64,000 bases of DNA from a bacterium (lineage in GTDB: Bacteria > Acidobacteriota > Blastocatellia > HR10): positions 128,001 through 192,000 of the forward strand of contig JBEPZV010000002.1 in assembly GCA_041640655.1 (NCBI GenBank). The letters are read 5' to 3'. The position numbers and the translations under genes were made by a program. Shown in pieces: positions 659 to 20,997 of this stretch. Numbering within the stretch: the stretch's first letter is position 1; each line of letters begins with the position of its first letter. The notes below the pieces were generated by a model, which saw only the letters and a program-made list of their open reading frames with translations, was not told the DNA's origin and made no database searches.

Positions 659-671
659 TGCCCTCCCCCTC

Positions 672-1859: not shown

Positions 1860-2004
1860 CTCGCCCCCTCCCATTCATCATCAGCCCACAAAGCCGCCCC
1901 CATCCGCGCGACTCATGTCTCGGATGAGCTTCGTCGGCACTGCGATCTCCACACCGCGCTCAGCGCGCCATAAATCCGGCGCGATTTCGACCGCCTCATT
2001 CAGT

Positions 2005-2520: not shown

Positions 2521-2533
2521 CGTCCATCTCTCC

Positions 2534-5086
2534 TCAAATGATCCAGTCGGGCACGGGAGACTCGACCTCGCCTTCGCGAACATCCAAAGTTTCATAAACA
2601 GCGCGTGACAAATAGGGAAAACCTTCGGTAATCTGGCCGACCGAGAAATCGCCCAATCGCTGGATAGGCATCGAGAGGGTATACGCCTGGAACATCGGTC
2701 GGAGCAACCGACTGATGCTGAACGCCAACCGACGCCCCGTCTCACGAGAGAGCTGACACGCATATTGCTTCACTCTCTCTGCTTCAACATGGAGAAATTC
2801 TCTCAATGGGCGGAACAATTCTCCCGAGTCACAGAGTTTGCACAGTAAATCCAATGCTCTCATTGGATCTTTACTCGACCACAGCTCAACAGCAATCTCC
2901 TTCAAAAATTCAGCCGTCTCATCGGCAATGCAAAATACCGAAACCTTCCAGGCCCGCTCCTCACCACGAAAGAGCTTCTGGAAATCCAGCTCGTCAAACT
3001 GCCAGGCGAGCGCCGAGCGCAAGATCTGCTCGGACGGCTCGCTCGACAACCGCCGCTCTAACTCCTCCACATACTCTCGCTGAATCTCCCCATAGTCGCA
3101 TTCCTCGATGATATTTCGCCTTCTTGAAAGGACATCCAGCGTTGCCGCCGTGAAGAGAGAATCGTAGATGTAGCTGTGGAACTCTCGTCCACGGTCGTTT
3201 TCATCATCCACCCAGCGATGCACCCAGACATCGGCCGGCGGTCGCTTGCCAAACCGATTCACCCGCCCGCAGATCTGCAACAGCGAATCCCACGGCGCAA
3301 AGTCCCGCACCGCCTCGTCCATATCGAGATCAACGCCGGCCTCGACGCATTGCGTCGAGACAACGCCCACCCACGCCTCCGGATCGCTTTCGATGAGCGT
3401 GCGGATTTCCTTGATCCGCCGGAGGCGTTCTACCGGCACAACGCTACCCGATAGATGGAAGAGCCTGAGCTCCCGAAACTCCCTTTCCTCTTCCTTGAGC
3501 TGACTGAGACGCGCGAATAGATCCCGCGCGCTGCGAATCGTATTGGCCACAAGCAGAACTTTTTTCCCCTTGCGTTGGAGGAGCCAATCGCCGAGCTGCG
3601 ATAGATAGTGGCTAAATGGAATGGGCTCCAGGTCGCGATGCAGGCGCGTCCGCGCGAGCGATCCGAAGTAAGATTTCTCATCTCGCACGAGTCCCGGTAT
3701 GCCCCGCAGAAAAGGCGGATGCGTGGCCGTCATATACAGGATCCGAACGCCGAGCTTTTCGCGAAGCTTTTCCAGAAATGTCCCTACGGCCGGGATGAGC
3801 CGCGCCGGGATCGTCTGCACTTCATCGAGCAGCGACACCGCTCCCGGTAGGCGAAAGAAACGACGGATGAAGCCGCGATCCTGCGAGAGGAACGAATAGA
3901 AGAGTTGATCAAAGGTCGTCACGATGAGGTCCGCGTCCCAATCCTCTAAGGCGAATCGCGCCTTCTCGAAGTTCGCTTCTTCGTTACTTTTGCTTTCGGG
4001 GAAGCTCAGGCTGTGATGCTGGATCACGGAAACGCCGGTTTTGTCTTCTGGGAAAACTCGACGCGCAATGTCCGTCGCCTGCTCGATGATGGAAAGATAA
4101 GGCAGCGCGTAAATGACGGGCTTCGATCCTTGCCTATCCTCGTGCTTGCGTTGCACGGCTCCAGCGAGGTAAAGGCCCATCAGCGTCTTGCCAAGTCCCG
4201 TCGGCAGAGTCAATCTGAAGGCCGAATCGTCCGAGCCTTCGAGGGCTTTTTGAATCTCCTGCCAGGCTCTCTCGCGAAGCCCCTGAAAGAGCGGGCTGGC
4301 CGGCGGTTGAGCGGACGCGTACTGTCGAATCCGTTCGGGATCAAGCGGCGCGGCTTGTTGGGGTTCGGGCGCTCTCACGACGCAAGCGACATCGGCTTCA
4401 GTCAGAGCCGAGACGACGAGCAGGAGGGCGAAATAAAGGTCAACGAGCCAACTCTCGGAAGGATTCGCTTCGTCGGCTTTCTGTCTGAGCAGTTGGCCGA
4501 ATTTTTGAAAGCATTTAGTGATCTGTTGGGCCGTCATTTTCTCGAACTGCTTGCGGTAATCCGCAAAGCGTAGAGTCAGGTCGAGCGGCTCGCATCGCAT
4601 CACGAAACCCCAGATGCGCTCGTCTATGTTGCTTTGAGCAACGGCGATCTGATGCTCGATACTCGCTTCTTCAAAAGCTTCTTCGAGGTTACAGAGCAGC
4701 CCATGATGGCGGTTGACGGCGTAGGCGCAGACGAAGGGGAGCAGCCGCGTCGGCTGCGGCTTCTGGCCGAAAACATGCGAGGCGACGATGAAGGTGAAGA
4801 CCGAGGAGATCGCCGCGTGATCTTTATCCTTGCCTTTGCCGCCATGGATGTAATCCTGGAACTGATGCTTCGCCTTTCCGAAGTCGTGCGTGCATCCGGT
4901 GATGAAGGCCGCTTTAGCGAGATCGTCGGCGCGAACGGCTAAATTCAAACCTGATTTGAGGCGGAGGATGAGCGTTGCGGCGCGACGGCCGGTGTCGCTA
5001 AGGTGATCGTAAAGCCGAATCGGCCGCCCCGACGCATCCGGCGGATGCGAGATCAATTCACGCATCTGGGGCGAAGGTATCGTCAT
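2534..5086 (-). CDS. cas3: CRISPR-associated helicase/endonuclease Cas3 (HD + SF2 helicase)
   Basis: LYDHL...HDFGKA...HHG HD domain; PTGLGKT, DEVQ, MTAT, STQCVEAGVDLD, QICGRVNR helicase motifs. Confidence 0.97.
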   Translation of the reverse strand: MTIPSPQMRELISHPPDASGRPIRLYDHLSDTGRRAATLILRLKSGLNLAVRADDLAKAAFITGCTHDFGKAKHQFQDYIHGGKGKDKDHAAISSVFTFIVASHVFGQKPQPTRLLPFVCAYAVNRHHGLLCNLEEAFEEASIEHQIAVAQSNIDERIWGFVMRCEPLDLTLRFADYRKQFEKMTAQQITKCFQKFGQLLRQKADEANPSESWLVDLYFALLLVVSALTEADVACVVRAPEPQQAAPLDPERIRQYASAQPPASPLFQGLRERAWQEIQKALEGSDDSAFRLTLPTGLGKTLMGLYLAGAVQRKHEDRQGSKPVIYALPYLSIIEQATDIARRVFPEDKTGVSVIQHHSLSFPESKSNEEANFEKARFALEDWDADLIVTTFDQLFYSFLSQDRGFIRRFFRLPGAVSLLDEVQTIPARLIPAVGTFLEKLREKLGVRILYMTATHPPFLRGIPGLVRDEKSYFGSLARTRLHRDLEPIPFSHYLSQLGDWLLQRKGKKVLLVANTIRSARDLFARLSQLKEEEREFRELRLFHLSGSVVPVERLRRIKEIRTLIESDPEAWVGVVSTQCVEAGVDLDMDEAVRDFAPWDSLLQICGRVNRFGKRPPADVWVHRWVDDENDRGREFHSYIYDSLFTAATLDVLSRRRNIIEECDYGEIQREYVEELERRLSSEPSEQILRSALAWQFDELDFQKLFRGEERAWKVSVFCIADETAEFLKEIAVELWSSKDPMRALDLLCKLCDSGELFRPLREFLHVEAERVKQYACQLSRETGRRLAFSISRLLRPMFQAYTLSMPIQRLGDFSVGQITEGFPYLSRAVYETLDVREGEVESPVPDWII

Positions 5087-5190
5087 GGTCTTTCAGATTC
5101 GAAATATTAAGCTCGATCTTCCCCGAAGTCGTTCGTGAGGAGGTTCAAGGAGCAAGAGATGCTGATTGAGTCTACGCCGTGTCCCATCGC

Positions 5191-5200
5191 TGCTCAATCC
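5191..5200. repeat. 10-bp direct repeat TGCTCAATCC, copy 1 (left flank of the III-D cassette)
   Basis: Identical 10-mer at 16108-16117, which spans the cas5 stop codon. Confidence 0.6.
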
Positions 5201-5225
5201 CCTATCCTTACAGATCAAAGCTCCG

Positions 5226-6506
5226 TTAATCATCCTCGGGAAGCTGAGGAAGATGATACTCATTGAGATTTTTCAAGCGATCCTGAACTAGTTTCGACAA
5301 AAAGTCTTCCACCACGACATCTCGGAGCTTCTGAAAGGCTTCTTGACCCACCGGTTGGAAACCATGCGCCAAGGGCGAGATGTTGCGGCATTCAAGATAG
5401 GGCTTCAGCCGAGATTTAGATTCTCGATACAGGTTGAGAAAATGTTGCCCTAGCTCGTCTCCAAGATCAGCGAGGAGCTCGTAGCCATGGAGCATACCTA
5501 CCTTGAGGCGCCCGTCAGGCCCCACACGGGATTCCCATTTGGGCCGCACGGCTTCTGGGATAACCCCCAAACAGACGTTGTCACTTCGAATGCCCTTGTC
5601 GTGGAGGCGCCGTTGGGCGATATACTCCATCAAACGATAGAGGAGGGCCACGGCCACATCATATCTATGCTCCTTCGCTCGCCGATCCGCATTCGCCAGG
5701 ATGTCTAAGGAGATTGCCTCGTTTAACGGTAAGCCGCACCTGCAGCTCTCACTTTTACACCGACTATTCCAGATCCCATGGACGATGGGGCTAGCCCTTT
5801 TAAGTTCGTTTTCAAGCCCTAAATCCTGTACGATGTCCTCGAAGTCCTTAAGCACCTGGCGAAGGCCCTGAGCTGCATCTTCGTAGTGAAGCACGTCCCA
5901 GGCTTCGCAGGCCTTCGCCAGTTGCTCTACAAAATTCAACCGTCTTTTGTGTTCTTCTCTGACTATACGCCACTGAAGGTCCTCGATGCGATTCAGAACG
6001 CTCGCAAAGTGGCCCGCATTGAAAAGTTGGACCAATGTCTTCCAATGTCGCCGGAACAGGAGATTTGATGGCGGGAAGCTCAATAGGCGCTCGGTGCCTG
6101 ACTTGACCTGACCCCGTTCGTCCCGCTCCCCCTCAATATAACTAACGCCAGCCAATTCGAGATTGATGGCCACATAGTCCACAGCGGCTGACATCGCTTT
6201 GGTGCCTCGCGTGTAGTCAACATAAACCTGATTAGGTTGAAACCCTCGATCCCGGAATAAAACCCGACGAATGACCTTCTCGTATTGTAATGCTAGCTCT
6301 TGAACATCATTGATCTCTTGAAACTCTTCGATCTTGTAGCGAGACTCAGGGAGGGATTGGGTTTGAACGACCTTATCAACGTTGCTTCGGCTCTGAGGCG
6401 TACAGAGAAAAAGAACGAAGTCTGGATTATGCTGGTCGGTGGCAAATACCAGCGAGCGATCTACATCCTTACCAACCCCAACTGTCAGAACTAATGCTTT
6501 ACTCAT
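5226..6506 (-). CDS. CARF-HEPN cOA-activated ribonuclease (TIGR02710/Csm6-Csx1-like)
   Basis: N-terminal CARF (LVLTVG, FLCT, VDYTRGTKAMSAA), helical middle, C-terminal HEPN motif RNISPLAHG. Confidence 0.88.
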   Translation of the reverse strand: MSKALVLTVGVGKDVDRSLVFATDQHNPDFVLFLCTPQSRSNVDKVVQTQSLPESRYKIEEFQEINDVQELALQYEKVIRRVLFRDRGFQPNQVYVDYTRGTKAMSAAVDYVAINLELAGVSYIEGERDERGQVKSGTERLLSFPPSNLLFRRHWKTLVQLFNAGHFASVLNRIEDLQWRIVREEHKRRLNFVEQLAKACEAWDVLHYEDAAQGLRQVLKDFEDIVQDLGLENELKRASPIVHGIWNSRCKSESCRCGLPLNEAISLDILANADRRAKEHRYDVAVALLYRLMEYIAQRRLHDKGIRSDNVCLGVIPEAVRPKWESRVGPDGRLKVGMLHGYELLADLGDELGQHFLNLYRESKSRLKPYLECRNISPLAHGFQPVGQEAFQKLRDVVVEDFLSKLVQDRLKNLNEYHLPQLPEDD

Positions 6507-6540
6507 AGTAGCTGGTCCCTCCGCAAAATAAGAAGAGCGA

Positions 6541-7539
6541 TCATCGAACTTCCTCCACAATCCAGCGCTCGACTTCTTGGCGGGCGCGCTCAAGTTGTCC
6601 GGGAGTTTGCGCAGTGGTCGTGAGCCGAAAGCCGATTCCCCGAACCCTCCGCCCCGGCAAATAGAGAACGAGCGCCTTCGGAGCTTCTGCCCTCACCCTG
6701 GGCTGCCCTTCCCGCCAGCCGATGTCCTCGATGCGCTCTACAAACAGAAAACGGTTGGCTAAACGGTCTGCCCACTTTCTGGTTTCCTCGGCTTCCTTAG
6801 GCTCTTTTCGTGCCAGGCTCTTCTCGCATTCGCCAGCCCGGGGTTCGGGCAGGGCCTCGACGCTCTCCAGGACCCGCAAGACCATCCGCCCCAGATCGGT
6901 CGGTCCACTAGCCGTGAGCAGTCCGTTCTGTTCGAGAAGTCCTTTGACCTCGGGACGCACCGAGCTGCCTTTCAGCCCCGCGATGATGTCCCCTAACAGC
7001 GGGAAAAGCCCAATGAAGGGCAGATTCACCAGCTTGATCTGGTCGACGGGCGGATGAAGTGCCCGCTCTTGCTCTTCTTTGCTCTTGTTCCGGAGTTTCG
7101 AAATGTGCCCTTCCTCCTCCAGCACAGGGTCATCCACAAGCACATGGAAAAGGCGCCTGGCACCATAAAACTGTACTGCCAGCGTCAGGAGTGCCGACAT
7201 GGCCTTGCGTCCGCCGGCGATGGAGGCGTAGACCTCCCAGCCCTTCTTGCGGTATTCCCTCAGGACGGCGCAGGCTTGATTCATGAACTCCAAGGCGGCT
7301 GTATCGGAGTCTACATCGTAGAAGGCTTCCAGGATGGGGGGCTCCAGAAGCGTTACCTTGCCATCGTAGTAATCCGGCAGATGCTCTCTCAAAAGACTCA
7401 GTGCATCCCGGGCATCGGTGTCTTGAGTCGTCAGAATGACGACATAGTCTATATGCACGCCGTCTGCCCGGAGGCGGTCAATGGCTTCCGTGACGACGGC
7501 GGGGCTCTCCCCCAGCGTGGCGAGGAGGACTTTCTTCAT
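6541..7539 (-). CDS. CARF protein of ring-nuclease type with a probable wHTH and an extra C-terminal domain
   Basis: LATLGESPAVVTE and SIAGGRKAMS CARF motifs; ATG 7539 after AAGGAGAGGGAG; ~100-aa C-terminal alpha/beta domain not recognised with certainty. Confidence 0.82.
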   Translation of the reverse strand: MKKVLLATLGESPAVVTEAIDRLRADGVHIDYVVILTTQDTDARDALSLLREHLPDYYDGKVTLLEPPILEAFYDVDSDTAALEFMNQACAVLREYRKKGWEVYASIAGGRKAMSALLTLAVQFYGARRLFHVLVDDPVLEEEGHISKLRNKSKEEQERALHPPVDQIKLVNLPFIGLFPLLGDIIAGLKGSSVRPEVKGLLEQNGLLTASGPTDLGRMVLRVLESVEALPEPRAGECEKSLARKEPKEAEETRKWADRLANRFLFVERIEDIGWREGQPRVRAEAPKALVLYLPGRRVRGIGFRLTTTAQTPGQLERARQEVERWIVEEVR

Positions 7540-7852
7540 GGCGGCTCCCTCTCCTTTCGGCAAACCACACAAGGAAGCGGCTGGTGTACCCGAGCACCTC
7601 GGTCACATCTTCTCTCGACAGCGGGGACAGGCGCGAGCGCCATTCCTGCATCACAATAGCAATTGTGCGCGCTGCCCGTTGAGGATCGGAGCGAAGTGCC
7701 GGAGAACTCGCCATCGAATGGGCAAGCTGAATTGCCTTGTCCAACCCTTGGCGCGCAGCATACTGTGCCCACCGCTCCCACTCCGTCCGCCGCAGACCCC
7801 CTAACCGCTCGGCAAGCTGACGTGCCAGTTCGACTTTCTCATCCGTGGTCAT
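7478..7852 (-). CDS. Small alpha-helical type III-associated protein (possible second Cas11-like subunit)
   Basis: Start overlaps the upstream RAMP stop (TGATG); helical, with C-terminal VLGYTSRFL resembling the YLGFLVRKF end of the Cas11 at 11902. Confidence 0.6.
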   Translation of the reverse strand: MTTDEKVELARQLAERLGGLRRTEWERWAQYAARQGLDKAIQLAHSMASSPALRSDPQRAARTIAIVMQEWRSRLSPLSREDVTEVLGYTSRFLVWFAERRGSRHEESPPRHAGGEPRRRHGSH

Positions 7853-8844
7853 CAGTACACCTCCCGGGGACACCGTTCATCTTTCGACTCAAAACCCGCT
7901 TTCAGCGCATTCCACGACGCCTTATGCAGAAGTCCGCTATCTTGACACGCCTGGAGGTACCGGGAAATGAGCCGAAGCACCTCTTTGCCTTGCACTACCT
8001 GGGGATTCAGTAAGCCTTTCACATTCCCGCCCCAGAACCGCATCCTCACCGGACGAAATTCCACTGAGCCAAAGCACCGGGGCTTGGCGCCGCCCAGTTT
8101 GGGAGAAAAGGCAATCTGGACCGACCCGTCTGCCAGCTCCCATCCGAGTGCATGCAGGAGTAACCCCAACTCCGCTTCGCTCAGGTTCTCAAACAGGAGA
8201 GCACCGCGAAATTTCGCCTCCCTCTGCACAGCCTCTACAAAGCGAAAGTTTTGCTGAGGAATAGAGTTCCCCACGGGCTGAAAGGTCTTGCGCTCATAGA
8301 AACGGCGCCGGTTCGGGTCAAAGCGCTTGGGCTCCCAGAGCTCGCCGATTTTCTCCACCTTAGGCTGCGTCTCTCCCTGCACCAGGAAATCGGTGAAATG
8401 CACTCGCCCTCGATAGCCGGTCGTCCCAAACAGCCGGCACGCTGGGCAGAGCGGGCTTCTCTCGTCGCGAAAGCGGCAGGGCTGATGCTGGCTTGAGCTA
8501 ACGCGCTCCCGTGGACGCCGAATCTGTGATACGCACGAATTCGAGATCGCCTCCACGATCGCCCGGATAGCGCCTTTGAGGCTGGTGCCCGGCACGCAGA
8601 GCTGCCCGTTCCGACGGTAGAAGGTGTACCACACATCGGGGCGCCGATTCCCGTGGTTCTGGTCGAACTCATACGCCCCGGAGCCTACGAAGAGGTATTC
8701 CGAGACGACCGTAAAGGTAAGCTCAAGCCGTCCAGTAAGCCCTGTAAATCTTTCGTGGGTTGTGACCTGCTGGCGCACCGGCGCCTCAGACGGGATCGGC
8801 ACCAGCACAAACGGCTTAGGCTCAGCGTTCGGATTCCTGGGCAT
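7852..8844 (-). CDS. Type III-D Cas7-group RAMP (terminal subunit)
   Basis: KPFVLVP, LFVGSG, VPGTSLKGAIR, CPACRLFG, GRVHF, LGGAKPRCFG. Confidence 0.9.
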   Translation of the reverse strand: MPRNPNAEPKPFVLVPIPSEAPVRQQVTTHERFTGLTGRLELTFTVVSEYLFVGSGAYEFDQNHGNRRPDVWYTFYRRNGQLCVPGTSLKGAIRAIVEAISNSCVSQIRRPRERVSSSQHQPCRFRDERSPLCPACRLFGTTGYRGRVHFTDFLVQGETQPKVEKIGELWEPKRFDPNRRRFYERKTFQPVGNSIPQQNFRFVEAVQREAKFRGALLFENLSEAELGLLLHALGWELADGSVQIAFSPKLGGAKPRCFGSVEFRPVRMRFWGGNVKGLLNPQVVQGKEVLRLISRYLQACQDSGLLHKASWNALKAGFESKDERCPREVY

Positions 8845-9283
8845 CGCTTCTTACCTCCCGTGGACTGACAAAGGTTGCGACCTTGTCCCGATAAAAGACC
8901 CGACATATCAGGCGAGCTTCCCGAGCGTTGACGACAGGGTAGACTTCAAACTGCGGGGCAAAGCGCTTGTCTTCCAGGTTGACCAATTGGCTTGTACACT
9001 CCACGACCTCCCACTCTCCCGGGACCGGCCTGAGCGCATCAGGCAGATCCCGGCGCTCCGCATCGCTCAGGACCCAGACCCGATAGAGCCCCTCGGCTGC
9101 CTTCTCCCAGCGGATCTCTACCTCGTGGTTGAAGGCACACCCAGCATCCCGGAGTTCCACGCTGTTCGGAAAATCAAGCTGCGCAAGCTCCCAGCTCAGG
9201 AGCACCCGCCCAGATAGCCGCTCGATGAGCTGCACGAGCGCTTCTGCGCCGAGTTCGCCCGCATAGACCCAGCCCCGCATCAT
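8822..9283 (-). CDS. csx19: Type III-D subunit Csx19 (probable)
   Basis: 153 aa, GCAFNHEVEIRWE motif, canonical position between Cas7 genes in III-D. Confidence 0.7.
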   Translation of the reverse strand: MMRGWVYAGELGAEALVQLIERLSGRVLLSWELAQLDFPNSVELRDAGCAFNHEVEIRWEKAAEGLYRVWVLSDAERRDLPDALRPVPGEWEVVECTSQLVNLEDKRFAPQFEVYPVVNAREARLICRVFYRDKVATFVSPREVRSDAQESER

Positions 9284-10164
9284 ACCGTCTCCAGAATCTG
9301 CGTGAGAGATTCCACCGCCTTGTCTGCTACTCTCTTCCAGGCTTCCCGGTCGTAGGTGCGCCGGAGGAAGACTGCAAGGTCAGTCTCGGCGCTCTCGGGA
9401 AGGTCTTCCAGGCGATCGGAAGCCTGAAGGCCGTAGGCCTTGCGTTCTTCCTCACTGACAAAGGCGCCCACGCCCCAGATCGCATTGGGAGAAAGCCCCG
9501 GCTTTTTGGCCAGCTCTACCGTGGCGTTCTCAACGCTCATCGAGACTTCACCAAAGCCCCGGTTCTTGCCAAAGCCCAGTTTCACAAGCCCGTCGTTGAT
9601 CGCCTGAAGCGTCAGCGCCAGAAGCCCCAGCTGCCAGACCTCGAAGTTCTCCAGCACCAGCGCGGTCCGGAAGCGCCCCTGCACCAGCACCTCGATGTCA
9701 AAAGGGCCCACGGCTACGGCATTCGTCAGCCGGGAGATCGCCACGCCGTAGCGGGTTTCGGTCTTGACCGCACCCTCGGGGAAGGCGTCCGTAAAGGAGA
9801 GCCGACCCTTCAGGCGGGTATTGCCATAGATTCTGCAGGCGCGGCAGGATTTCTTGTAGACCGTCGCCGGATCTTTTTCACTTTCCAATCTACGCCCGCA
9901 GTAGTCCGGGTTAGAGGGAAAGGGCTCAGGGCAGGCTCCATCCTCCCTCACGGTCCGCAGCACCTTTTCCGTGAAGCTTCGGAACGTGCCCTTAAGCGAA
10001 GAGCCGGGGATAAAGACTATCTCACCCTCGGACGTCCACGTGCGCACAAACTGCATATCGGGAAGCGAGGGATTGGGCGAAGCCAGTCCCGACTTGATGA
10101 GAAGGGGTGCACGAGGCTCAATCACAAGATCCAGCTTCAGGGCGTTCCAGCGGCGCTTATGCAT
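9280..10164 (-). CDS. Type III-D Cas7-group RAMP (Csm3-like)
   Basis: PLLIKSG...PDMQFVRT, IPGSSLKG, CRACRIYG, LGFGKNRGFG. Confidence 0.92.
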   Translation of the reverse strand: MHKRRWNALKLDLVIEPRAPLLIKSGLASPNPSLPDMQFVRTWTSEGEIVFIPGSSLKGTFRSFTEKVLRTVREDGACPEPFPSNPDYCGRRLESEKDPATVYKKSCRACRIYGNTRLKGRLSFTDAFPEGAVKTETRYGVAISRLTNAVAVGPFDIEVLVQGRFRTALVLENFEVWQLGLLALTLQAINDGLVKLGFGKNRGFGEVSMSVENATVELAKKPGLSPNAIWGVGAFVSEEERKAYGLQASDRLEDLPESAETDLAVFLRRTYDREAWKRVADKAVESLTQILETV

Positions 10165-11056
10165 GGCTTCCTCCCTCCTTCAGGGCTTGTACAAGTCCCT
10201 GCAGAAGCTCCGAATGCGAAACGGCGGGAGGCTGACCCGCACCCGTCAGGTAGTCCAGCAGATTTTCTCTGCCGATTTTCCGAATGGTGAGTTCAACCAG
10301 TTCGCCCCAGCCGGGACCGCGGGTGGTCTTGCCGCCCACGGGCAGTTCGCCCTTACGCATCGCTTCCAGCGCCAGAAGCAGGAGCCCCACTTCCCACTCC
10401 TCGGCGTTTTCCACCACGATGGTAATGCCGAACGCTGCTCCTGCAGGCACAGTCTCGAAGTCGTATTTGATGCCGGATTTCGCCGAGCCCAGGTCGCGGT
10501 CAATTCCCACGCCGTCGCGGATTTCTGTGAGGCGGAGTAGGCTCTCTTGATTGGACAACATAGCATCCCGGAACGAGACCCGGGATGCCAGCCAGGGCGA
10601 ACCAAAAATCCGACAGGCAGTGCAGGAGTGCTGCCAGACCTGTTGCACGAGCTTTTCATCGTCCAACTGGTTATTCTGCGTTGCACGTTGGACCATACAG
10701 TTTTTGCACCTGCCGCAATCGGAACAGCAACTTCCTTTGCAGTCCTCACAGTGCTCACAGCATTTGGCGATGATGCAGCGATTCTTCTCATCCAGCGGGT
10801 CGCACGCCCAGAGCCGTTCGCCCTGGTGGGTCTGCTTGAGTTCGTCCATCGTGCGCAGGAGCCGCTCTACGTGCGCGCGCACCGCGCCCTTGAGGGAGGA
10901 ACCCGGGATGAAGGGAACGCCTTCCGGGGTCTTGATGACGGGAAGGTCGGAGCCAGCGGGCATGAGCGATGCGCGGGCGCCCACGGAAAGGGCGGTCTTC
11001 ATCCGCAGGGTTGCGGTAATGAGCCAACGGTTTTCGAAGTGCCAGAAGGAATGCAT
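10157..11056 (-). CDS. Type III-D Cas7-group RAMP (Csx7/Csm3-like) with a Cys-rich insert
   Basis: ALSVG...SDLPV, IPGSSLKGAVR, CTACRIFGS, RDGVGIDR, VGGKTTRGPG. Confidence 0.92.
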   Translation of the reverse strand: MHSFWHFENRWLITATLRMKTALSVGARASLMPAGSDLPVIKTPEGVPFIPGSSLKGAVRAHVERLLRTMDELKQTHQGERLWACDPLDEKNRCIIAKCCEHCEDCKGSCCSDCGRCKNCMVQRATQNNQLDDEKLVQQVWQHSCTACRIFGSPWLASRVSFRDAMLSNQESLLRLTEIRDGVGIDRDLGSAKSGIKYDFETVPAGAAFGITIVVENAEEWEVGLLLLALEAMRKGELPVGGKTTRGPGWGELVELTIRKIGRENLLDYLTGAGQPPAVSHSELLQGLVQALKEGGSHA

Positions 11057-11059
11057 GCT

Positions 11060-11896
11060 CTATCCCTCCCTCTGCTTTTCTAGCCACACGGCAACTTCTC
11101 GGGTAAAGGTGGAGAACTGTTCCGGGGCCTGCTGGAGGGCTTCGAGCACATGCCGAAGATCAATCTGCACGTATTCGTGCACAAGCACGTTCCGAAACCC
11201 TCCCGCTCCGCGCAAAGAAGCATACAGGGATTGGGAGATCACACCCACCGAGCACAGCTCTCGCAAAAGCGCCTCGTACGTTTCCGGCTTCCTTCGGAAG
11301 TGCTCGGCGAGGATGTGGTCGGCAAGCTGGAAAATCAGCGTTAATCCCGCCAGGAGCCCTCGTTCCACTGTCCAGCGGAGGCTCAGATTGGTCTCTAGCT
11401 CCAGCAGGGTTACGGTTCGATATTTCGCCAGCTCCGCACTGACCTTCTGGAGCTCCTCCAGCGCTGCGGCGATGAAGGTGCGGTTCAGTCCCATGGCTTC
11501 CTCCTTTTTCCGATGCGTCCGGAGACCTTCCTCCCGGAGAAGTGCTCGCGTAGCGGCTTCCCAGCGCATTCGTTCGCCCGACTCTCGCTCGTAGAGGCAG
11601 ATTCCCGTGCGCATGATCTGCTCCCGCAGCCAGAGGGGCGCCTGGGGAAGCTCCACCAGGTCCAGTCGGTCGGTGCCGAGCGCTTCGGAAAGCTCTGCAT
11701 AGAACGGCTGGAAGCGAAAGTCTGGGGCAGGCAAGAGCGCCAGGTCCACATCTTCTGCCTCCTCCGGCATACGGGCTGCCGAGCCGAACAGGTAGACAAG
11801 CCGCACCGGGTGACGGGCGAAGAGGGCATCGAGCTCCGAAAGCCGGAAACCTCTTCTCAAGGATGGCAGATGCGCGTATTTCTCTCGCACTCCCAT
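11060..11896 (-). CDS. Fused minimal nucleotidyltransferase (MntA-like) - HEPN (HepT/DUF86-like) protein
   Basis: N-half YLFGS-x9-DVDLA and DLVEL; C-half GFRNVLVHEY (R-x4-H-x-Y); single uninterrupted frame. Confidence 0.88.
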   Translation of the reverse strand: MGVREKYAHLPSLRRGFRLSELDALFARHPVRLVYLFGSAARMPEEAEDVDLALLPAPDFRFQPFYAELSEALGTDRLDLVELPQAPLWLREQIMRTGICLYERESGERMRWEAATRALLREEGLRTHRKKEEAMGLNRTFIAAALEELQKVSAELAKYRTVTLLELETNLSLRWTVERGLLAGLTLIFQLADHILAEHFRRKPETYEALLRELCSVGVISQSLYASLRGAGGFRNVLVHEYVQIDLRHVLEALQQAPEQFSTFTREVAVWLEKQREG

Positions 11897-11901
11897 GCCA
11901 C

Positions 11902-12279
11902 TCAGCTCTTCCGCTCCGCTACGAACTTCCGCACCAGAAAACCCAGATAGAGGCGGATCAGCTCCATACGCACCCGGCGGAGCAGTTCAGGATTCCGTTG
12001 TGCAATCTGCTCCGCCCTCCGACTTAGCTCTCGCATATCCTCCAGAATCTGGCGCCCCACCTCAGCAGGGAGCTTTCTCCGCCCCATCTGGTAGCCGATG
12101 AAGTTTTCCAGCGCCAACACGGAATCGGTAGCCGAGGCCAGATTTTGAAGGTTGCGCAGTTGGGATTCCTCAAGGTCTAGGCTCGCTGCACGGGTTCTTG
12201 TAATGCAGGACTCCGCCTTCTGCACGATGTCGTCGAGGCTGTGTTCAATCTGCTGCAAAACCTTTGCTTCGGTGCTCAT
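11902..12279 (-). CDS. Type III small subunit Cas11 (Csm2-like)
   Basis: 125 aa helical, SQLRNL...FIGYQMGR...YLGFL; follows csx10. Confidence 0.8.
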   Translation of the reverse strand: MSTEAKVLQQIEHSLDDIVQKAESCITRTRAASLDLEESQLRNLQNLASATDSVLALENFIGYQMGRRKLPAEVGRQILEDMRELSRRAEQIAQRNPELLRRVRMELIRLYLGFLVRKFVAERKS

Positions 12280-13475
12280 ACCGGCATCACCTCCATGTGG
12301 AACGGATGGCAGATGAGGATTTCGCCCAGCCCTTCGTCGGTACGGATTCCCACACCTCGGGCTTCACGGTCTTCGAGAAACGGCAAAAGCGCCTGCGGGG
12401 AGGCGTCCACCCGGAACACATACACACTCCCCATCGCCGCACCCAGATGGGTGGGCTTAGGCAGCCCCCAGGCCGTGGAGAAGCCTCCCACGAAGGTCGG
12501 CTGCGTCGCCCAAAAGACGGGCTCCAGTATCTGCCCGTTGAAGGGCAGAAAGAGCTTCAGTGTAGGCAGACCGTCCGGATCACGAAGAACGGCGGGCACC
12601 AGCAGGTCCACGCTGAAGTAGGTTCCAGATGGCGCATCTGGCACGGAACTGCCCACCTGCCGGGCAAGTGCGGCAAGGTCGCGCCAGACCTCGCGGAGCT
12701 TGTCATTGAAGATCCTGAGGCGCTCTGCAATCGGGTCCACGCGGGGTTCGGTTTCCCGCAGACGGGCGGCGCCGAAGCCCCGCGTGGTCAGGGCGCCAAC
12801 GCCTGCCTCTTCCACCGCCTGCTTGAGTTCTTCGATGACCGTTTCGTCCTCGGTCCAGATCCTCCCCACGAAACACCCCTGCGGTTGCATCCCGATCAAC
12901 CGATAGAGCATTCCTTCCTGCGCGGCACGGCGGTGACGGCTGAGCGCTACCTTCGTTTGCACACCTTGAGACATAGGGACTTTCATCCACCCCTCAGGCA
13001 AGCTTGCATAAAATCCACCGACCTTCTCCATCCGTCCGCCGCAGCGCTTATCCTCCGCCATCTGCGCCGTACAGCGAAGGAGCAGCGGAACAGGGAAGCG
13101 AGCCCCCAAACGTTTCAACTCTGAGTATGCCACAGCAACGAGGAGACTATCACGGATACCATGTCCTACGTCCTTCCGCCTCTCTCGGAGAACGTTACGA
13201 AAGCCACCGTGAAGCTTACACTCCAGGGCTGTCATCGGAAATGGCAAAGCGTACACGCTTTCTGAAGGCGTTGGAAAGAAATTACCAAACCGAATTTGTT
13301 GCACGGCAGGCAGAATTTCATTTGTGTTTCCCTGCAGTTTAAGCCACTCCGCCAACGCCCCCCGGAGCACGCTGCCAGGGATATAACCTCGCGTGCCAAG
13401 GTAGTCGCCTTTGGGCTTCACATCGCCCGTAAGAATCGGTTCTTCAGGAATCACTACAATGAAATACTCCCTCAT
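12276..13475 (-). CDS. csx10: Type III-D Csx10 (Cas5-group RAMP)
   Basis: YIPGSVLRGALA, VGALTTRGFG, MGSVYVF, GVGIRTDEGLG (two RAMP G-loops). Confidence 0.9.
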   Translation of the reverse strand: MREYFIVVIPEEPILTGDVKPKGDYLGTRGYIPGSVLRGALAEWLKLQGNTNEILPAVQQIRFGNFFPTPSESVYALPFPMTALECKLHGGFRNVLRERRKDVGHGIRDSLLVAVAYSELKRLGARFPVPLLLRCTAQMAEDKRCGGRMEKVGGFYASLPEGWMKVPMSQGVQTKVALSRHRRAAQEGMLYRLIGMQPQGCFVGRIWTEDETVIEELKQAVEEAGVGALTTRGFGAARLRETEPRVDPIAERLRIFNDKLREVWRDLAALARQVGSSVPDAPSGTYFSVDLLVPAVLRDPDGLPTLKLFLPFNGQILEPVFWATQPTFVGGFSTAWGLPKPTHLGAAMGSVYVFRVDASPQALLPFLEDREARGVGIRTDEGLGEILICHPFHMEVMPV

Positions 13476-14122
13476 GATGCAGCCCCATCAGGTCGTTCAA
13501 CAAATGCCCTGACCTTGTGAGCGAGGTCATCCTTAGAGATATTCTGTCCGTTCACGCTTGCTTGAAAGTCTTCCAACTCTACCCAGCCTAGACCTCGGGA
13601 GCGTGCCGCGCCAATAGCATAGCCCATATTGGCTCCCAGCCAAAGGAGCGCCGCCGCTGCTCTGGCTTCGCTCTCAGAATCGAAAATTCCCTGAACCTTG
13701 CCCTCCAATGTCGGATACCATGCCACCTCTGTGGAGAACAATCGCTCTTCATAAGCGGTCTTGCGACGCCGGCTCAAAGAAACACTCATCTTCACATCCC
13801 GCAAAGCACCCTGAAACTTAGCATCGTGGAACCGGAGAGGCGACCTATCCCGCGGGTGTCCGAAGACCTCGCACACGGGACAGAGCCCACAGATGGTGGA
13901 TACTGTAGAAGCGTCGCATACACGCACACCGAGACCCCGCAAGGCGCGTTCTGCTCCCTCTCGCAGCCAACCTTTGAGCGTGGTGGCGGGGATGACAGGA
14001 TGCTTGCCGTCATGCCAATCCAGCACCAGCGCCTTGTCGGTCCACAACTTTGCTCGCTCGCCGGTCACATGTACGCCCGACGCGAACCGGAAGCGAAGAA
14101 GAACTTCAAGCCGACTCCTCAT
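13472..14122 (-). CDS. csm3: Type III-D Cas7-group RAMP Csm3
   Basis: VHVTG...TDKAL, IPATTLKG, CPVCEVFG, IGAARSRGLG; ATG overlaps the cas10 stop. Confidence 0.88.
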   Translation of the reverse strand: MRSRLEVLLRFRFASGVHVTGERAKLWTDKALVLDWHDGKHPVIPATTLKGWLREGAERALRGLGVRVCDASTVSTICGLCPVCEVFGHPRDRSPLRFHDAKFQGALRDVKMSVSLSRRRKTAYEERLFSTEVAWYPTLEGKVQGIFDSESEARAAAALLWLGANMGYAIGAARSRGLGWVELEDFQASVNGQNISKDDLAHKVRAFVERPDGAAS

Positions 14123-15795
14123 AGACGAACCTCCAAGACGGGATACTTGTGTGCCTCCAGCTCGATTAGTTCCAGCACATCCAGAAGAGCCGTCTGCCAG
14201 CCGCCAGCATTTCTCCGCCAAAACCAGAATCCCTCAGGAGCTGGTGTTCCACCGTCCACTAACTCCCCTAACTCCTCATAAGCAGCTCGCAGGTCCTCTT
14301 TATGCTCTTTGGAGCGCGCCACCTGATACAACGCATAATTGAGAGACACATGGACGCCCTTTTCCAACGATTCGGCCAAGGTTCTACGCTGAGCGGCTGG
14401 GCTATGGGATAACTTCCTCGCCAGCGCTGACAGTCGCTCTGCTTGTGCTACCGTATAAGGGCGAGCGGTCAGATGGCGCGCAGCCTCGTCACGCGCATAT
14501 AGAGCCTTCAGTATAACCTTCGCCTCTTCGGATATAACCGGCGCTCGCAACCACAGATGGCAGAGCGTTCCGGTTCGTTTCTCTCGCGCCAATCTCTTCG
14601 CTTCCTTGAGCAACCCTTCCGCCAGATCGAACAGAAAGCGAATGGGATATTTCACATCGGCGATCGCCAAACCAGCGGACGTGGTCAGACGAGTTCCTCT
14701 GCCGCCAAATGCAGCTTGGAGTTTTTGAATCTCAGTATGGCTCTCAAACCCCCTGAGCAGATTCACCGCCAACGCCCAACCAGCACTTGCGGGCACGATG
14801 ACCACGACATCATCTCCTCCGAGGGCGATGATCTCAAACGGCAGCGTGTTCCGTGCGAGCCGCTCTGATCCGAACGTTTCCCACAGGGCCGCAAAGAGCG
14901 CCTCCTCCGTCGCTGTGCTCAAAGCTGTTGAAATATCGCGGTACTCCTGCAACGATTTCGCTCGTTGCAGCAGATCGCCCATGTTATTTCCGTCGGCGTA
15001 GAGCAGGGCAATTCTTCCTTCTCCGGCTGCCAGGGCATCCAAATCTTGTGGGGTTTTCCCAATGATTTCCACACCTTTTTTCTCCCGCACCCACTTGCGG
15101 AATCTCAGCAAAAACTCTCGTTTCCCCCCTCGGCCTTTCCGGCGCTTCATCGAACACAAGCCGCAGAGCCACTCTGCTGGTTCTCGCGCCTCATCACGCT
15201 CCTCTGCCGCCCGTTTCCCGCACGATTGGCACCGCTGGTGAATGGGCAAAGTTTCGTAGAAAGGCGCGCGTTCTTTCCGGCGCTTTGCCTCCTGAAGCTT
15301 CCCCGTGAGTTGAGCAACGAGTTCACCGAAGTTCTTTCGATCCGCGCGGTTCGTGACGATCGCATCAAAATGGCTAAAGAGCAAATCTTGGGCAATCCCG
15401 CGCCCCTGGAGTTGGTTGAGGGTTCGCTCATCATGAGGAAAGATGCCTCGCTCCAAATCAGCACGATCCATCGGATCCGATGCGACGACAGTGATGGTTG
15501 CAGTTTTCGTGCGTTCAAGGTAAAGCCGTTCGATTTCCCGCTTCAACCTGTCCGCCTCACCCGCGGGCACTACGGCAAGGAAACCGCCACCTCCACAATA
15601 AATCAGATCCTTCTCTGGAGCATTTTGTGGGAAAAGCTCGCGAATCTCTTCTTCCAGCTCCGTTAAGATTTCGCTCCCGCCACGGATCTCCGGCAAAGCG
15701 CTTGTCTCATACACGAACGTCTTGATCGCGTCCACGTCGCCGAGCAGGAGGCGAACAGGCGTAACTTCTTTGCCATTTTCAGTTTGTGCGCTCAA
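14119..15795 (-). CDS. cas10: Type III-D Cas10, no HD domain, intact GGDD
   Basis: GDVDAIK..IRGGS, YCGGGGF, CQSCG..CGLC zinc finger, YADGNNMG, LGGDDV; likely TTG start at 15795 after GAGGAG. Confidence 0.95.
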   Translation of the reverse strand: MSAQTENGKEVTPVRLLLGDVDAIKTFVYETSALPEIRGGSEILTELEEEIRELFPQNAPEKDLIYCGGGGFLAVVPAGEADRLKREIERLYLERTKTATITVVASDPMDRADLERGIFPHDERTLNQLQGRGIAQDLLFSHFDAIVTNRADRKNFGELVAQLTGKLQEAKRRKERAPFYETLPIHQRCQSCGKRAAEERDEAREPAEWLCGLCSMKRRKGRGGKREFLLRFRKWVREKKGVEIIGKTPQDLDALAAGEGRIALLYADGNNMGDLLQRAKSLQEYRDISTALSTATEEALFAALWETFGSERLARNTLPFEIIALGGDDVVVIVPASAGWALAVNLLRGFESHTEIQKLQAAFGGRGTRLTTSAGLAIADVKYPIRFLFDLAEGLLKEAKRLAREKRTGTLCHLWLRAPVISEEAKVILKALYARDEAARHLTARPYTVAQAERLSALARKLSHSPAAQRRTLAESLEKGVHVSLNYALYQVARSKEHKEDLRAAYEELGELVDGGTPAPEGFWFWRRNAGGWQTALLDVLELIELEAHKYPVLEVRL

Positions 15796-15853
15796 TTTAT
15801 TCTCCTCGTCTCCACATCGCGCGTTTCGTTCGCGGGGATCAAAGTGTGCCAAT

Positions 15854-15882
15854 AATATACCACGAAGCTAAGCAAAGAGTAA
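15854..15882 (-). promoter_or_regulatory. Probable sigma70 promoter of the III-D cassette
   Basis: TTACTC-N17-TATATT with an extended -10 (TGG TATATT), in an AT-rich gap upstream of cas10. Confidence 0.55.
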
Positions 15883-16107
15883 TAAGACCAGAGATCCCTC
15901 ACCTTTAGAAAGCCGGAGCTTCGGTAGAGCCATCGCTCAGGGAGCCCTTGAAAATCAGGGCAGTCCTGAAAGCGCTTGCGCGTTGAGCACTCGACTTCGC
16001 GCCTTTTGGGCTCAAGATGGGGAATTCCTTTTTCCACTGCCAAGACGCAGAGGATCGAGTAGCGCGATTTGACCAATCGCGCCACTTTAACTGCACGCCA
16101 AACCGTA

Positions 16108-16117
16108 TGCTCAATCC
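16108..16117. repeat. 10-bp direct repeat TGCTCAATCC, copy 2 (right flank; includes the cas5 stop)
   Basis: Identical to 5191-5200. Confidence 0.6.
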
Positions 16118-16875
16118 ACGCATCGCTCAAAAAATACACATTGCACCTCCTTCTTCCTAAGCACGAAGATCGGGATTTTACCTCCGGCACATCGCACCTT
16201 CAGCGGTTTCGCTTCGCGCGAGAGATAGGCCAGATAGAGATGGCGAAAGCGACGATCCGGGAAGACTTCGTTGGGAACTCGCTCTTCGCGCAAGATGGCT
16301 TCGGACTCGGAAAGATCAATCGCCTTCGCTGTCGCCTCATCGAGAGGGAGGACCGAACAGATATCGGCTTGCTCTACCTCAATCAGTTCTGCAACATCTT
16401 CTCCTTCCCACTCGATGTCGGCCAAAAAACCCATGATTCCCATGCAAGGCGGATACACCCATCGTTTCTGCTGGAGACGCTCTCTCAGTTCGTTCATCAG
16501 CTGCTCATCCCGATGCCAAAAGACAATCCGATAGTGAGGTCGGCGAATGACCTCCAGGTTCTCCTGAAATGACTCGATCATCTTGGCAGGGCGGAATCTC
16601 CCTTTATTCAGGATTGGTGGACCTTGGCGCCACTTTTCAGGAAGACGATCCTTCACGATCGATCGCAGCGGACAGACGGCGATACGCGTCGCGTCTGCCG
16701 GAAAGCGTTCCGCCAGCTTGCTACGTGGGACGCCCAAGATCGCGCCGACCATCCCGATCACGGATGTGCGCGGCGGAAAACTATAGGTCAGGGCCGAGGT
16801 AGTCGTGAACCACTTGCGCCAGTGCCCAAATGTGCCACGAATGGTGAAAAGATAGACTGGTATCCCATCGCCCAT
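16111..16875 (-). CDS. cas5: Type I-B Cas5
   Basis: IRGTFGHWRK..TTTSALTYSFPPRTSVIGMVGAILG; YPPCMG. Confidence 0.95.
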   Translation of the reverse strand: MGDGIPVYLFTIRGTFGHWRKWFTTTSALTYSFPPRTSVIGMVGAILGVPRSKLAERFPADATRIAVCPLRSIVKDRLPEKWRQGPPILNKGRFRPAKMIESFQENLEVIRRPHYRIVFWHRDEQLMNELRERLQQKRWVYPPCMGIMGFLADIEWEGEDVAELIEVEQADICSVLPLDEATAKAIDLSESEAILREERVPNEVFPDRRFRHLYLAYLSREAKPLKVRCAGGKIPIFVLRKKEVQCVFFERCVD

Positions 16876-16891
16876 AGTACCTCCATCACGC

Positions 16892-17917: not shown

Positions 17918-17934
17918 GACGCACCTCCTTGGGT

Positions 17935-18432
17935 TTAGGATTCACCTTCTATTTCCTCTTCGGGAGAAGCTTCCTCGGCCTCTTCGCCCGGTGGCGTCTC
18001 TAACGCCTTACGGACGGCATCCACCGTCGCCCACCAGAGCCCCCAGCCCAGACAGAAGCAAAACCGAGCCTCCTCATCCGAGAGCTCGCCGTCCTGCGAA
18101 GCGAAATCGCACGCCGCCTGTTGAATCGCCTGAATCGCCTGGGTGTTGGCGTCTAATTGGCGAAGCTTCAGCATGAGTTCAGGGAAGATCTTCACCATGA
18201 TCTCTTCCCGCGAAACCGCAAGCCCTCGCAGGCGGCTGACGATGGGCATCTCGCCGGCCTTGCTCTGTCTCTCGCCTCGCTGCTTGCTTTCCACCTGCCC
18301 AAAGAGAACACCAATGAGGAACGCCGCACGCTTTGCGGGGGAATCAAGGAGAAGCCTTGGCTTGAAGAAATTCTCCCAAAACTCCGGCGTCACCCCGGAC
18401 TTTACTGGTTGCGTTGTGGTTTGCGTTGCCAT
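17935..18432 (-). CDS. Cas11b translated from an internal in-frame start in cas8b (predicted)
   Basis: GAAGGAGGT-gcaaat-ATG inside cas8b just before the helical C-terminal domain; 165 aa. Confidence 0.75.
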   Translation of the reverse strand: MATQTTTQPVKSGVTPEFWENFFKPRLLLDSPAKRAAFLIGVLFGQVESKQRGERQSKAGEMPIVSRLRGLAVSREEIMVKIFPELMLKLRQLDANTQAIQAIQQAACDFASQDGELSDEEARFCFCLGWGLWWATVDAVRKALETPPGEEAEEASPEEEIEGES

Positions 18433-19947: not shown

Positions 19948-19950
19948 GGC

Positions 19951-20694: not shown

Positions 20695-20709
20695 CTCACC
20701 ACTTGTACT

Positions 20710-20940: not shown

Positions 20941-20967
20941 TTTTGTCCTCCTCGTTCGTGTGCTGAT

Positions 20968-20997
20968 ATTTTCCCCACGCATGCGTCTCGGTGTCAA
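20968..20997 (-). promoter_or_regulatory. Probable promoter of the cas6-cas8b-cas7-cas5 operon
   Basis: TTGACA-N18-GAAAAT. Confidence 0.5.

Follow-up and report, generated by a model that had tools for sequence, protein, structure and literature searches.

The locus described here is probably a composite of two CRISPR-Cas systems, in which a mobile type III-D effector cassette has come to lie in the otherwise overlapping cas5/cas3 junction of a type I-B operon. It is found in a stretch of 64,000 nucleotides (nt) from the genome of a hot-spring bacterium of the Acidobacteriota, corresponding to contig C2:128001-192000 of the source genome G000, and we refer to this whole stretch as the window. 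So far, metagenomes are the sole source of sequence for this organism. Loci that combine type I with type III systems are believed to draw layered immunity from a single spacer memory, and their construction is rarely visible. In this case three states of the junction (empty, filled and refilled) are represented in close relatives, and since the breakpoints lie inside cas5 and cas3, they directly reveal a probable assembly route, in which cassettes are swapped by homologous recombination where the two genes overlap.

A III-D cassette nested within a I-B operon

Genes were called with NCBIfam and Pfam family models. These give, in order along the minus strand, cas6a, the I-B genes cas6b-cas8b-cas7-cas5, a 12-gene III-D cassette whose genes span 15795-5226, and cas3-cas4-cas1-cas2 (Table 1); the two modules together fit into 22 kb of a single strand and have a single cas1 and a single cas2. 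This agrees with the original prediction, made from the letters and open reading frames (ORFs) of the window, which had described the nested, co-oriented order and whose coordinates for the insert, 5087-16117, bracket it correctly. The I-B module comprises cas8b, cas7, cas5, an HD-helicase cas3, cas6 and cas4-cas1-cas2 with an adjacent array, and the cassette is assigned to III-D by a csx10 gene scoring above the model cut-off, together with a Cas10 that has no HD domain. Four RAMP genes were confirmed in the cassette.

The genome is a 128-contig assembly, 89.8% complete, and contigs from one public metagenome run (X4) have short loose ends near 15469-16155, as might be seen if the nested order were a chimera of metagenome assembly. 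Such a chimera is very unlikely, to the point of being negligible. The stretch recurs nearly unchanged in contigs of four public metagenome runs, each from a different study (some may be the assembly's source sample): a single contig of run X2 covers 2001-21000 with 2 differences, contigs of X1 and X3 bridge both junctions of the insert and an X4 contig bridges csm6 and cas3. Furthermore, the same order is found in the unrelated assembly of a second species, G010, and because it recurs there gene for gene, it is not a product of chance either. X4 itself is labelled a viral metagenome. Its contigs fragment into short pieces across the cas5-cas10 gap, and four loose ends lead into unlike sequence (15469-16155, 3031 and 7702), a hint that strains or relatives whose junctions differ at these positions were present as well.

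Empty, filled and refilled junctions

We searched 41 related genomes with Cas5b and a Csx10 family model and aligned the window proteins to the DNA around the matches. The locus of G010 (Blastocatellia; same order, different family) is filled and reads cas6a, cas6b, cas8b, cas7, cas5, the cassette from cas10 to the CARF gene, cas3, cas4, cas1, cas2 and an array, with 56-77% identity to the window in the I-B module and 47-72% in the III-D module. Both MNT-HEPN and csm6 are lacking, and a PIN-domain gene is present instead; 72 nt separate cas5 from cas10, and an 80-codon ORF bridges the CARF gene and cas3. The I-B genes of G005, which belongs to the same genus as G000, are 80-90% identical to those in the window, and a different cassette stands between cas5 and cas3. 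It encodes a Card1-like CARF-nuclease (a weak match), a Cas10 of 551 amino acids (aa) that is 27% identical to that of the window, a RAMP, a 537-aa Csx10, a double Cas7, Csx19 (7.7e-37) and an 856-aa TIGR03986 RAMP, a makeup that fits the partly fused III-Dv as described in PMC11026444. This cassette abuts cas5 with almost no gap, and its last gene overlaps the start of cas3. In the same genome cas4 aligns in two pieces ~850 nt apart (L024 14433-16065), suggesting an insertion or disruption.

The original prediction had proposed a synteny comparison for an empty cas5-cas3 junction, and empty alleles were indeed found in close relatives. G037 (same class) has the order cas6b-cas8b-cas7-cas5-cas3-cas4-cas1-cas2 at 61-89% identity (cas3 73%, cas7 89%), with cas5 and cas3 overlapping. 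A metagenome scan with Cas3 added three loci, all of them empty: L077 (82-84% identity), L078 (60%) and L079 (65%). At each of the four empty junctions cas5 and cas3 overlap, by 1-10 nt of the aligned segments, which supports the view that in G000 the cassette interrupts a I-B operon. No further close Cas3 relative was found among 401 sampled genomes of the phylum, the next best match after G037 (74%) being 32%. Immediately upstream of cas6, the G037 locus also has a III-B cmr cassette together with a csx1-crn3 fusion, and the array after its cas2 (L037 14778-14953) has a homologous repeat in an orientation, relative to the cas genes, opposite to that in the window and G010.

In trees of Cas5, Cas3 and Cas7, the window groups with G005, L077 and G037 (97-99 by the Shimodaira-Hasegawa-like approximate likelihood ratio test, SH-aLRT), and G010 falls outside. 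The filled and empty states are therefore interleaved, because the filled G010 lies outside a group that contains the filled G000 and G005 as well as the empty L077 and G037.

Probable recombination footprints inside cas5 and cas3

Breakpoints were located from sliding-window nucleotide identity in 90-nt windows, counting cas3 from an ATG at 5065 that may be its true start. When G000 is compared with the empty L077 and G037, cas3 is 52-60% identical over nt 1-180 and 94-95% identical in the next two 90-nt windows. On the other side of the insert, cas5 is 73-96% identical to that of L077 over nt 1-660, and its last ~160 nt are 46-63% identical to L077 and G037. Comparison of the two filled loci of the genus, G000 and G005, gives 96% identity over the first 90 nt of cas3, as against 46-51% where cas5 ends. 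The N-terminus of Cas3 is common to the three filled loci, MRELISHPPDASG.PIRLYDHL, and includes a six-residue insertion, where the empty L077 and G037 have MRELKSHPDILL.DHL.

In L077 and G037, both empty, cas3 starts before cas5 has ended, and the two genes overlap by 13 nt, which in L077 read ATGCGTGAGTTGA. This 13-nt motif, combining the cas3 start and the cas5 stop, is present twice in G000, at the cas5 end (16123-16111) and in cas3 (from 5065). In the window these final 13 nt of cas5 are a relic of the cas3 start, which in the empty alleles overlaps cas5. Taken together, these data are most simply read as a history in which the cassette, along with ~160 nt of cas5 and ~180 nt of cas3, was exchanged between I-B backbones by homologous recombination, and the cassette itself patched and replaced in place; the cas5|cas3 junction would consequently behave as a slot for type III cassettes.

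The cassette is widespread and mosaic

Csx10 was used to determine how far the cassette extends beyond these relatives. A scan of one genome per species, covering 185,579 species, was made with a 5-sequence alignment and yielded 35 loci. Searching these by tblastn with the window proteins revealed the same cassette order, at identities mostly of 45-84% and of 33-84% over all cassette genes. The loci are labelled Thermoflexus, Fervidibacter, Poribacteria, Bipolaricaulota, Armatimonadota, Gemmatales, Caldatribacterium, Kapaibacterium, Firmicutes UBA3570, Thermoproteota (an archaeon) and others, a set of thermophile lineages among which the cassette is horizontally mobile. I-B flanks were detected in just one of the 13 loci with ~10 kb on both sides, L040, which is G010; 22 of the 35 loci were too short for both flanks, and no I-B gene was seen in any of those.

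The original prediction held that the cassette has no adaptation genes of its own, and this is borne out. The only cas1 match among the 34 other III-D loci is at 30% identity, in L042 (G006), downstream of the cassette; it is not of the I-B type and is 72% identical to a cas1 on contig C3 of G000. It would therefore seem that the cassette normally travels without adaptation genes. In G006, which is of the same genus as G000, the cassette is at another locus (L022, C15:1-15000), where it adjoins csx1-crn3, cas1 and an S9 peptidase (89% identical), in the place where G000 has a III-B cassette. The G006 csx10 aligns as two pieces, which may reflect a frameshift.

Within the window the cassette is a mosaic. 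The Cas10 tree groups G000 with G010 (support 96/96), and a quick tree of Csx7b groups G000 with Thermoflexus, not with G010 (SH-aLRT 99). From csx7a through to the CARF gene, identity to Thermoflexus is 73-84%, except for the 131-aa protein (49%), as compared with an identity of 47-72% to G010. The MNT-HEPN gene sits at the switch point. It is an optional accessory gene, occupying the same slot in two of the 35 loci, L046 and L050, at 52% identity. The csm6 gene is known only in the G000 cassette, since tblastn gave no match in the stretches from nine relatives or in the 35 Csx10 loci.

Two Cas6 proteins and a possibly shared array

According to the original prediction the III-D module has no cas6 of its own and depends on that of the I-B module. 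This does not stand in that form, as two distinct cas6 genes precede the I-B effector genes. The Cas6b proteins of the window, G005, G010 and G037 are 56-85% identical to one another, with 72% identity between that of the window and that of G037, whose locus is empty. The Cas6a proteins of the window, G005 and G010 form a second group, 68-87% identical internally and 29-33% identical to the Cas6b group. Among the compared sequences the nearest outside relatives of Cas6a are Cas6 proteins encoded near cas10 in standalone III-D loci, at 49-50% identity for the Thermoflexus Cas6 directly upstream of cas10 and 36-43% for a Caldatribacterium Cas6 on the opposite strand. No Cas6a was seen in the portion of the empty G037 locus that was analysed. 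Since Cas6a is closest to the Cas6 of standalone III-D cassettes, only 29-33% identical to Cas6b and not found at the empty locus, these comparisons suggest that cas6a arrived with the III-D module. Three observations qualify this: four I-B genes separate cas6a from the cassette, a 520-codon non-cas ORF lies between cas6a and cas6b in G005, and the empty L078 has a cas6a-like gene (44%; 9459-10178) after cas2, at the contig end. A type III cassette might follow in L078 past this contig end.

The 520-codon ORF of G005 (L038 4426-5988) has a faint GDSL-lipase match, and the corresponding region of the window (20695-21648) keeps ~640 nt of it at 77% identity, as a deletion remnant. The G+C content in 1-kb windows is 51-62% across the cas locus and 62-67% beyond ~21000.

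The array adjacent to the locus begins just outside the window, 678 nt beyond cas2 and on the same strand. It comprises 265 repeats of 30 nt, 264 of them perfect, and 264 spacers, of which 262 are unique and which have a modal length of 36 nt. A degenerate repeat is located at the far end of the array, and hence the leader adjoins cas2. Read on the cas strand, the repeat is GTGCTAATCGAACCAAGGTGGGATTGAAAC. It is of the I-B lineage, and the repeats of G010 and the empty G037 are members of its family. Its 3' end, ATTGAAAC, matches the repeat beside the standalone III-D cassette of L041 (...GGGATTGAAAC). From these sequence comparisons we infer that both complexes may use CRISPR RNAs (crRNAs) from the one array.

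The genome holds other type III systems. Contig C3 (1-24200; L075, L076) carries two further loci, of types III-B and III-A. The III-B locus comprises a cas6-like gene, cmr1, a gene for a 937-aa Cas10, cmr3-6 and a csx1-crn3 fusion, and the III-A locus encodes an 842-aa Cas10 with an N-terminal LLHDIGK (HD) motif, csm2-5 and an NE0113-type CARF protein. An S9 peptidase is also present on C3, and a cas1 gene beside the III-A locus is cut by the contig end. Arrays with 37-nt repeats are found at two contig ends, on C1 (222636-223263) and on C13 (68-1002), and are probably those of the C3 supercluster.

The two modules might, then, be mere neighbours, brought together by an accident of recombination, with the III-D complex relying on Cas6a and other arrays and its position conferring no functional sharing or benefit. 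The interleaving of filled and empty alleles on the I-B tree is what a dispensable insert would give, the cassette occurs in other contexts (including G006, beside csx1-crn3 and another cas1), and the genome has the further arrays just described. We nevertheless regard this explanation as decidedly unlikely, given that the nested order is found in three species, that the slot in G005 has been refilled and not lost, that the genes are all co-oriented and tightly packed, and that the repeat of the sole local array ends as does the one beside the standalone L041 cassette. Moreover, complex loci that combine I-B with type III usually share I-B repeats and one cas1, according to PMC7145637.

Cas10 and the accessory proteins

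Translation of cas10 most likely starts at a TTG at 15795, behind GAGGAG, and the protein opens directly with the Palm1-like sequence GDVDAIKTF. Its model matches are restricted to the Palm2 domain and the C-terminal halves of Csm1/Cmr2; the N-terminal HD region is absent, as had been predicted, and ALGGDDVV is present, so that the cyclase motif is intact. A Cas10 lacking the HD domain is the norm for this subtype, most III-D Cas10 proteins being without it according to PMC11026444. The accompanying claim that Cas3 is the only interference DNase is correct within the locus and fails for the genome as a whole, where the III-A Cas10 on C3 has an HD motif.

A Cas10 with GGDD, a CARF-domain Csm6 and the NE0113-type CARF protein make up a gene set that would be suited to cyclic oligoadenylate signalling. 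Csm6 has an R-x6-H motif at residue 403, and the MNT-HEPN protein has GS..DxD and R-x4-H motifs. The 332-aa CARF protein was modelled with 7 homologues, giving a predicted local distance difference test score (pLDDT) of 78.8. With Foldseek its predicted CARF domain best matches two Crn1 ring nucleases, Sso2081 and Sis0455, as well as the corresponding domain of Cad1 (E ~1e-8). The C-terminal 147 residues, modelled alone (pLDDT 88.8), had no Foldseek match at E <= 0.001. VIA-align returned weak rows: winged-helix segments of MarR/PadR regulators scored Z 4.0-4.6 across 42 residues, and Roadblock-like folds scored Z <= 5.2. These matches amount to a 42-residue piece resembling a winged helix and an alpha/beta domain with no clear relative. 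On these models, the NE0113-type protein may be a ring nuclease, a regulator or an effector; a Csa3-like transcription factor controlling cas3-cas2 is among the candidates.

A further conceivable arrangement is that the HD-less III-D complex and Cas3 act in a joint pathway, with transcript-bound III-D recruiting or licensing Cas3 on the DNA being transcribed, in an I-D-like hybrid of two operons; the position of the cassette would then be functional and not merely tolerated. This would account for the refilling of the slot, the translational coupling to cas3 in G005 and the Cas3 N-terminus common to the nested loci. All three are explained more simply by a common recombination history, and the proposal, for which we found no support, is highly doubtful.

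Transcription of the composite locus

The claim that the III-D cassette has its own promoter could not be substantiated. A sigma-70 consensus scan detected no promoter-like or terminator-like site on the cas strand in the 139-nt or the 315-nt gap (promoters of this phylum may differ), and the only candidate is an extended -10-like element, TGgTATATT, at 15862-15854. Nothing homologous to the 315-nt gap turned up in the rest of the genome or among the compared loci, and the other nested loci lack a counterpart to it. Of the promoter-like sites in the locus, the best is TTGACA-18-GAAAAT (10/12), at 20997-20968 (-), upstream of cas6b, and a TTGACA hexamer is also found upstream of cas6b in G005 and G010. 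Because the G005 cassette abuts cas5 and cas3, and G010 has a gap of 72 nt and a bridging ORF, the arrangement favours a single long operon over a promoter of the cassette's own.

As originally envisaged, the III-D module, having no Cas6 of its own, would drive cas3-cas4-cas1-cas2 from its own promoter, so that RNA-triggered signalling is coupled to DNA destruction by Cas3, in compensation for the HD-less Cas10. The cassette does lie directly upstream of cas3, with no terminator-like site between csm6 and cas3; the -10-like element is 50-60 nt upstream of cas10; Cas10 does lack HD; and contact with cas3 is also close in the relatives, through the overlapping last gene in G005 and the small ORF between the CARF gene and cas3 in G010. 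We consider this reading unlikely, since the element does not pass the consensus scan and lies in a gap that neither G010 (72 nt) nor G005 (none) has, the best promoter-like site is upstream of cas6b, and Cas6a is closest to the Cas6 of standalone III-D loci. The HD-less state that Cas3 would be compensating for is, according to PMC11026444, typical of III-D, and a Cas10 with an HD motif is encoded elsewhere in the genome. Nor is a common transcript equal to coupled signalling: co-transcription alone would not couple cyclic oligoadenylate signalling to Cas3.

Two 33-nt direct repeats, 69 nt apart, are present at 20839-20940 (-), in frame within a small ORF (20943-20710) that lies behind GAGGAGG, just downstream of the best promoter-like site and upstream of cas6b. 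The 36-nt piece between them contains an inverted repeat, GGCTCGG...CCGAGCC, and G005 has a single copy of the 33-nt repeat inside a small ORF. Degenerate mini-arrays of the CreA/CreR kind were considered and rejected as an explanation: alignment of the 33-nt repeats to the CRISPR repeat scored -5 to +2, as against a shuffle mean of -8.5 and maximum of 2, and the best match of the 36-nt 'spacer' elsewhere in 1-24000 is 21/36. The pair is probably a 69-nt in-frame duplication.

A model for the composite locus

We favour a model in which the genes from cas6b to cas2 probably form one transcription unit, expressed from the site upstream of cas6b and possibly from weaker internal starts. The I-B Cas1-Cas2-Cas4 proteins would fill the single 265-repeat array, and Cas6b and/or Cas6a would cut the 30-nt repeat, leaving the 8-nt tag ATTGAAAC. 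The same crRNAs would then load both Cascade, recruiting Cas3 to DNA flanked by a protospacer-adjacent motif (PAM), and the III-D complex, binding target transcripts. On binding RNA, the HD-less Cas10 with its intact GGDD motif would make cyclic oligoadenylate, which in turn would switch on the Csm6 RNase and engage the NE0113-type CARF protein in a ring-nuclease-like or regulatory role. The III-D complex and the cyclic oligoadenylate response would thereby provide a PAM-independent second layer of defence. The locus would also be a compact natural construct, posing the questions of whether two effector complexes can be fed by one operon and one array, which Cas6 serves which complex and whether an HD-less Cas10 benefits from the adjoining Cas3.

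Several points weigh against this model and the history proposed for the locus. The III-D complex could draw its crRNAs from the 37-nt-repeat arrays or from the III-A and III-B loci, which have their own cas6-like gene and cas1, and of the two standalone cassettes with an array in reach, one (L048) has a different repeat end (...GACGGAAAC). The 315-nt and 139-nt gaps could hold promoters missed by the sigma-70 consensus scan. We infer recombination from identity profiles and not from a formal test, and each I-B tree is a quick one, built from 7 rows and rooted at its midpoint. Lastly, I-B flanks were sought by tblastn with window proteins at E <= 1e-6, a search that divergent type I genes may escape.

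Genes of the locus

The features of the locus are collected in Table 1. The labels cas11, csx19 and 'small subunit' that had been given to three small cassette genes are unconfirmed, none of the three proteins having a significant family match. The 125-aa and 131-aa candidates for Cas11 match no NCBIfam or Pfam model; homologues of the 131-aa protein, 37-52% identical, are in the same place in 12 of the 35 Csx10 loci. For the 153-aa protein, 6 of 12 homologues match the Csx19 model at E <= 1, the best at 0.003 and all of them below the cut-off, and comparison of the protein itself with the Csx19 of G005 gave nothing by BLASTP or hhalign.

Table 1. Features of the composite I-B/III-D locus, with positions in the window
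Feature	Position	Strand	Family matches (E-value) and remarks
cas2	395..706	-	TIGR01573 4.2e-14, PF09827 1.2e-22
cas1, I-B type (cas1b)	672..1874	-	TIGR03641 1.5e-128
cas4	2005..2763	-	PF01930 2.1e-51
cas3, HD nuclease and helicase, one 850-aa ORF	2534..5086	-	TIGR01587 4.4e-32, TIGR01596 5.2e-18; first ~180 nt are of the nested allele
csm6-cas3 gap, 139 nt	5087..5225	-	unique sequence
csm6, CARF-HEPN RNase	5226..6593	-	TIGR02710 1.2e-56, PF09670; likely start 6506
CARF protein, Cas_NE0113/Csx14 family	6541..7572	-	PF09623 4.2e-39; likely start ATG 7539, 332 aa
131-aa protein	7478..7873	-	no family match; cassette position conserved
330-aa Cas7-type RAMP, TIGR03986-like	7852..8844	-	TIGR03986 4.3e-30, PF03787
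153-aa protein in Csx19 position	8822..9283	-	TIGR03984 E 0.073, below cut-off
Csx7-type Cas7 RAMP (b)	9280..10164	-	TIGR02581 3.2e-27
Csx7-type Cas7 RAMP (a)	10157..11056	-	TIGR02581 9.2e-68
MNT-HEPN fusion, MntA-like nucleotidyltransferase and HepT-like RNase	11060..11896	-	NF047751 1.5e-20, NF047752 3.5e-16
125-aa protein in Cas11 position	11902..12279	-	no family match; position conserved
csx10, III-D signature Cas5-like RAMP	12276..13475	-	TIGR02674 8.6e-82, 275 bits vs cut-off 177
249-aa RAMP, Csm3/Csx7-like	13472..14221	-	PF03787 2.5e-17
cas10, 558 aa, HD-less, GGDD intact	14119..15795	-	PF22335 7.8e-20
cas5-cas10 gap, 315 nt	15796..16110	-	sequence unique to G000
cas5b (Cas5h)	16111..16875	-	TIGR02592 9.1e-28, just above cut-off
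cas7, I-B (Csh2)	16892..17917	-	TIGR02590 3.4e-63
cas8b	17935..19947	-	PF09484 2e-46
cas6b, I-B lineage Cas6	19951..20694	-	TIGR01877 7.4e-34
cas6a-cas6b spacer region, 954 nt	20695-21648	-	
cas6a, second Cas6	21649..22416	-	TIGR01877 1.2e-38

Comparison with known systems

The locus is one of the hybrid I-B/type III loci, a known class, and stands out by its unusual, interleaved gene order. In PMC7145637, complex loci are those with several interference modules and one adaptation module; the pairing of I-B with type III is the commonest, most such loci have one cas1, and I-B repeats are found in 38 of 63. A 'Hybrid' class is also distinguished by CRISPRCasTyper, as stated in its preprint. The window resembles the known complex I-B/type III loci in having two module types, one cas1-cas2-cas4 set, one array with an I-B-type repeat and a thermophile host. 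It differs from them in that its III-D module is inside the I-B module, splitting the Cascade genes from cas3, and in the second cas6 upstream of the I-B genes. A literature search that covered running text, not figures or supplements, found no text on a III-D cassette between cas5 and cas3 of a I-B operon; for the complex I-B/type III loci, this running text mentions neither such an order nor empty, filled and refilled alleles or footprints at the junction.

Adjacent 'hybrid/coupled' clusters of I-B plus III-B or III-D are described for group I Clostridium botulinum and C. sporogenes, and in C. botulinum III-B has been replaced by III-D with cas6 left in place, as given in PMC8865420 (citing Puigbo/Kristensen et al. 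2017). The likeness to the window is in the side-by-side occurrence of I-B and III-D and in the swap of a cassette with its neighbours kept, as between G005 and G000. The difference is that the clostridial clusters are described as adjacent, not as a cassette within a I-B operon, and are of another phylum and another III-D lineage.

With known III-D systems the window cassette shares csx10, an HD-less Cas10, several Cas7 proteins and a gene in the csx19 position. It is unfused like III-D1, and differs by its MNT-HEPN, NE0113-type CARF and Csm6 genes and by having no adaptation genes or array of its own; it is the G005 cassette that resembles III-Dv, in its double cas7, csx19 and large insertion-type Cas7. 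In Marinomonas mediterranea, which has I-F and III-B systems, the type III system is said to use type I crRNAs as a back-up against PAM and seed escape, reportedly on experimental evidence. The model proposed here is similar, with common crRNAs serving type I DNA targeting and a PAM-independent, RNA-activated type III defence; the M. mediterranea loci are separate and their sharing is experimental, whereas the sharing suggested for the window is read from sequence alone. Type I-D systems have a Cas10-like large subunit in a Cascade that recruits Cas3, and Cas10d carries HD; by contrast, the Cas10 of the window is without HD and is accompanied by a complete, separate Cascade set with cas8b. Compared with these systems, what is new is the polymorphic, refillable slot at the cas5|cas3 junction, with its visible breakpoints, together with a second Cas6 that probably came with the cassette.

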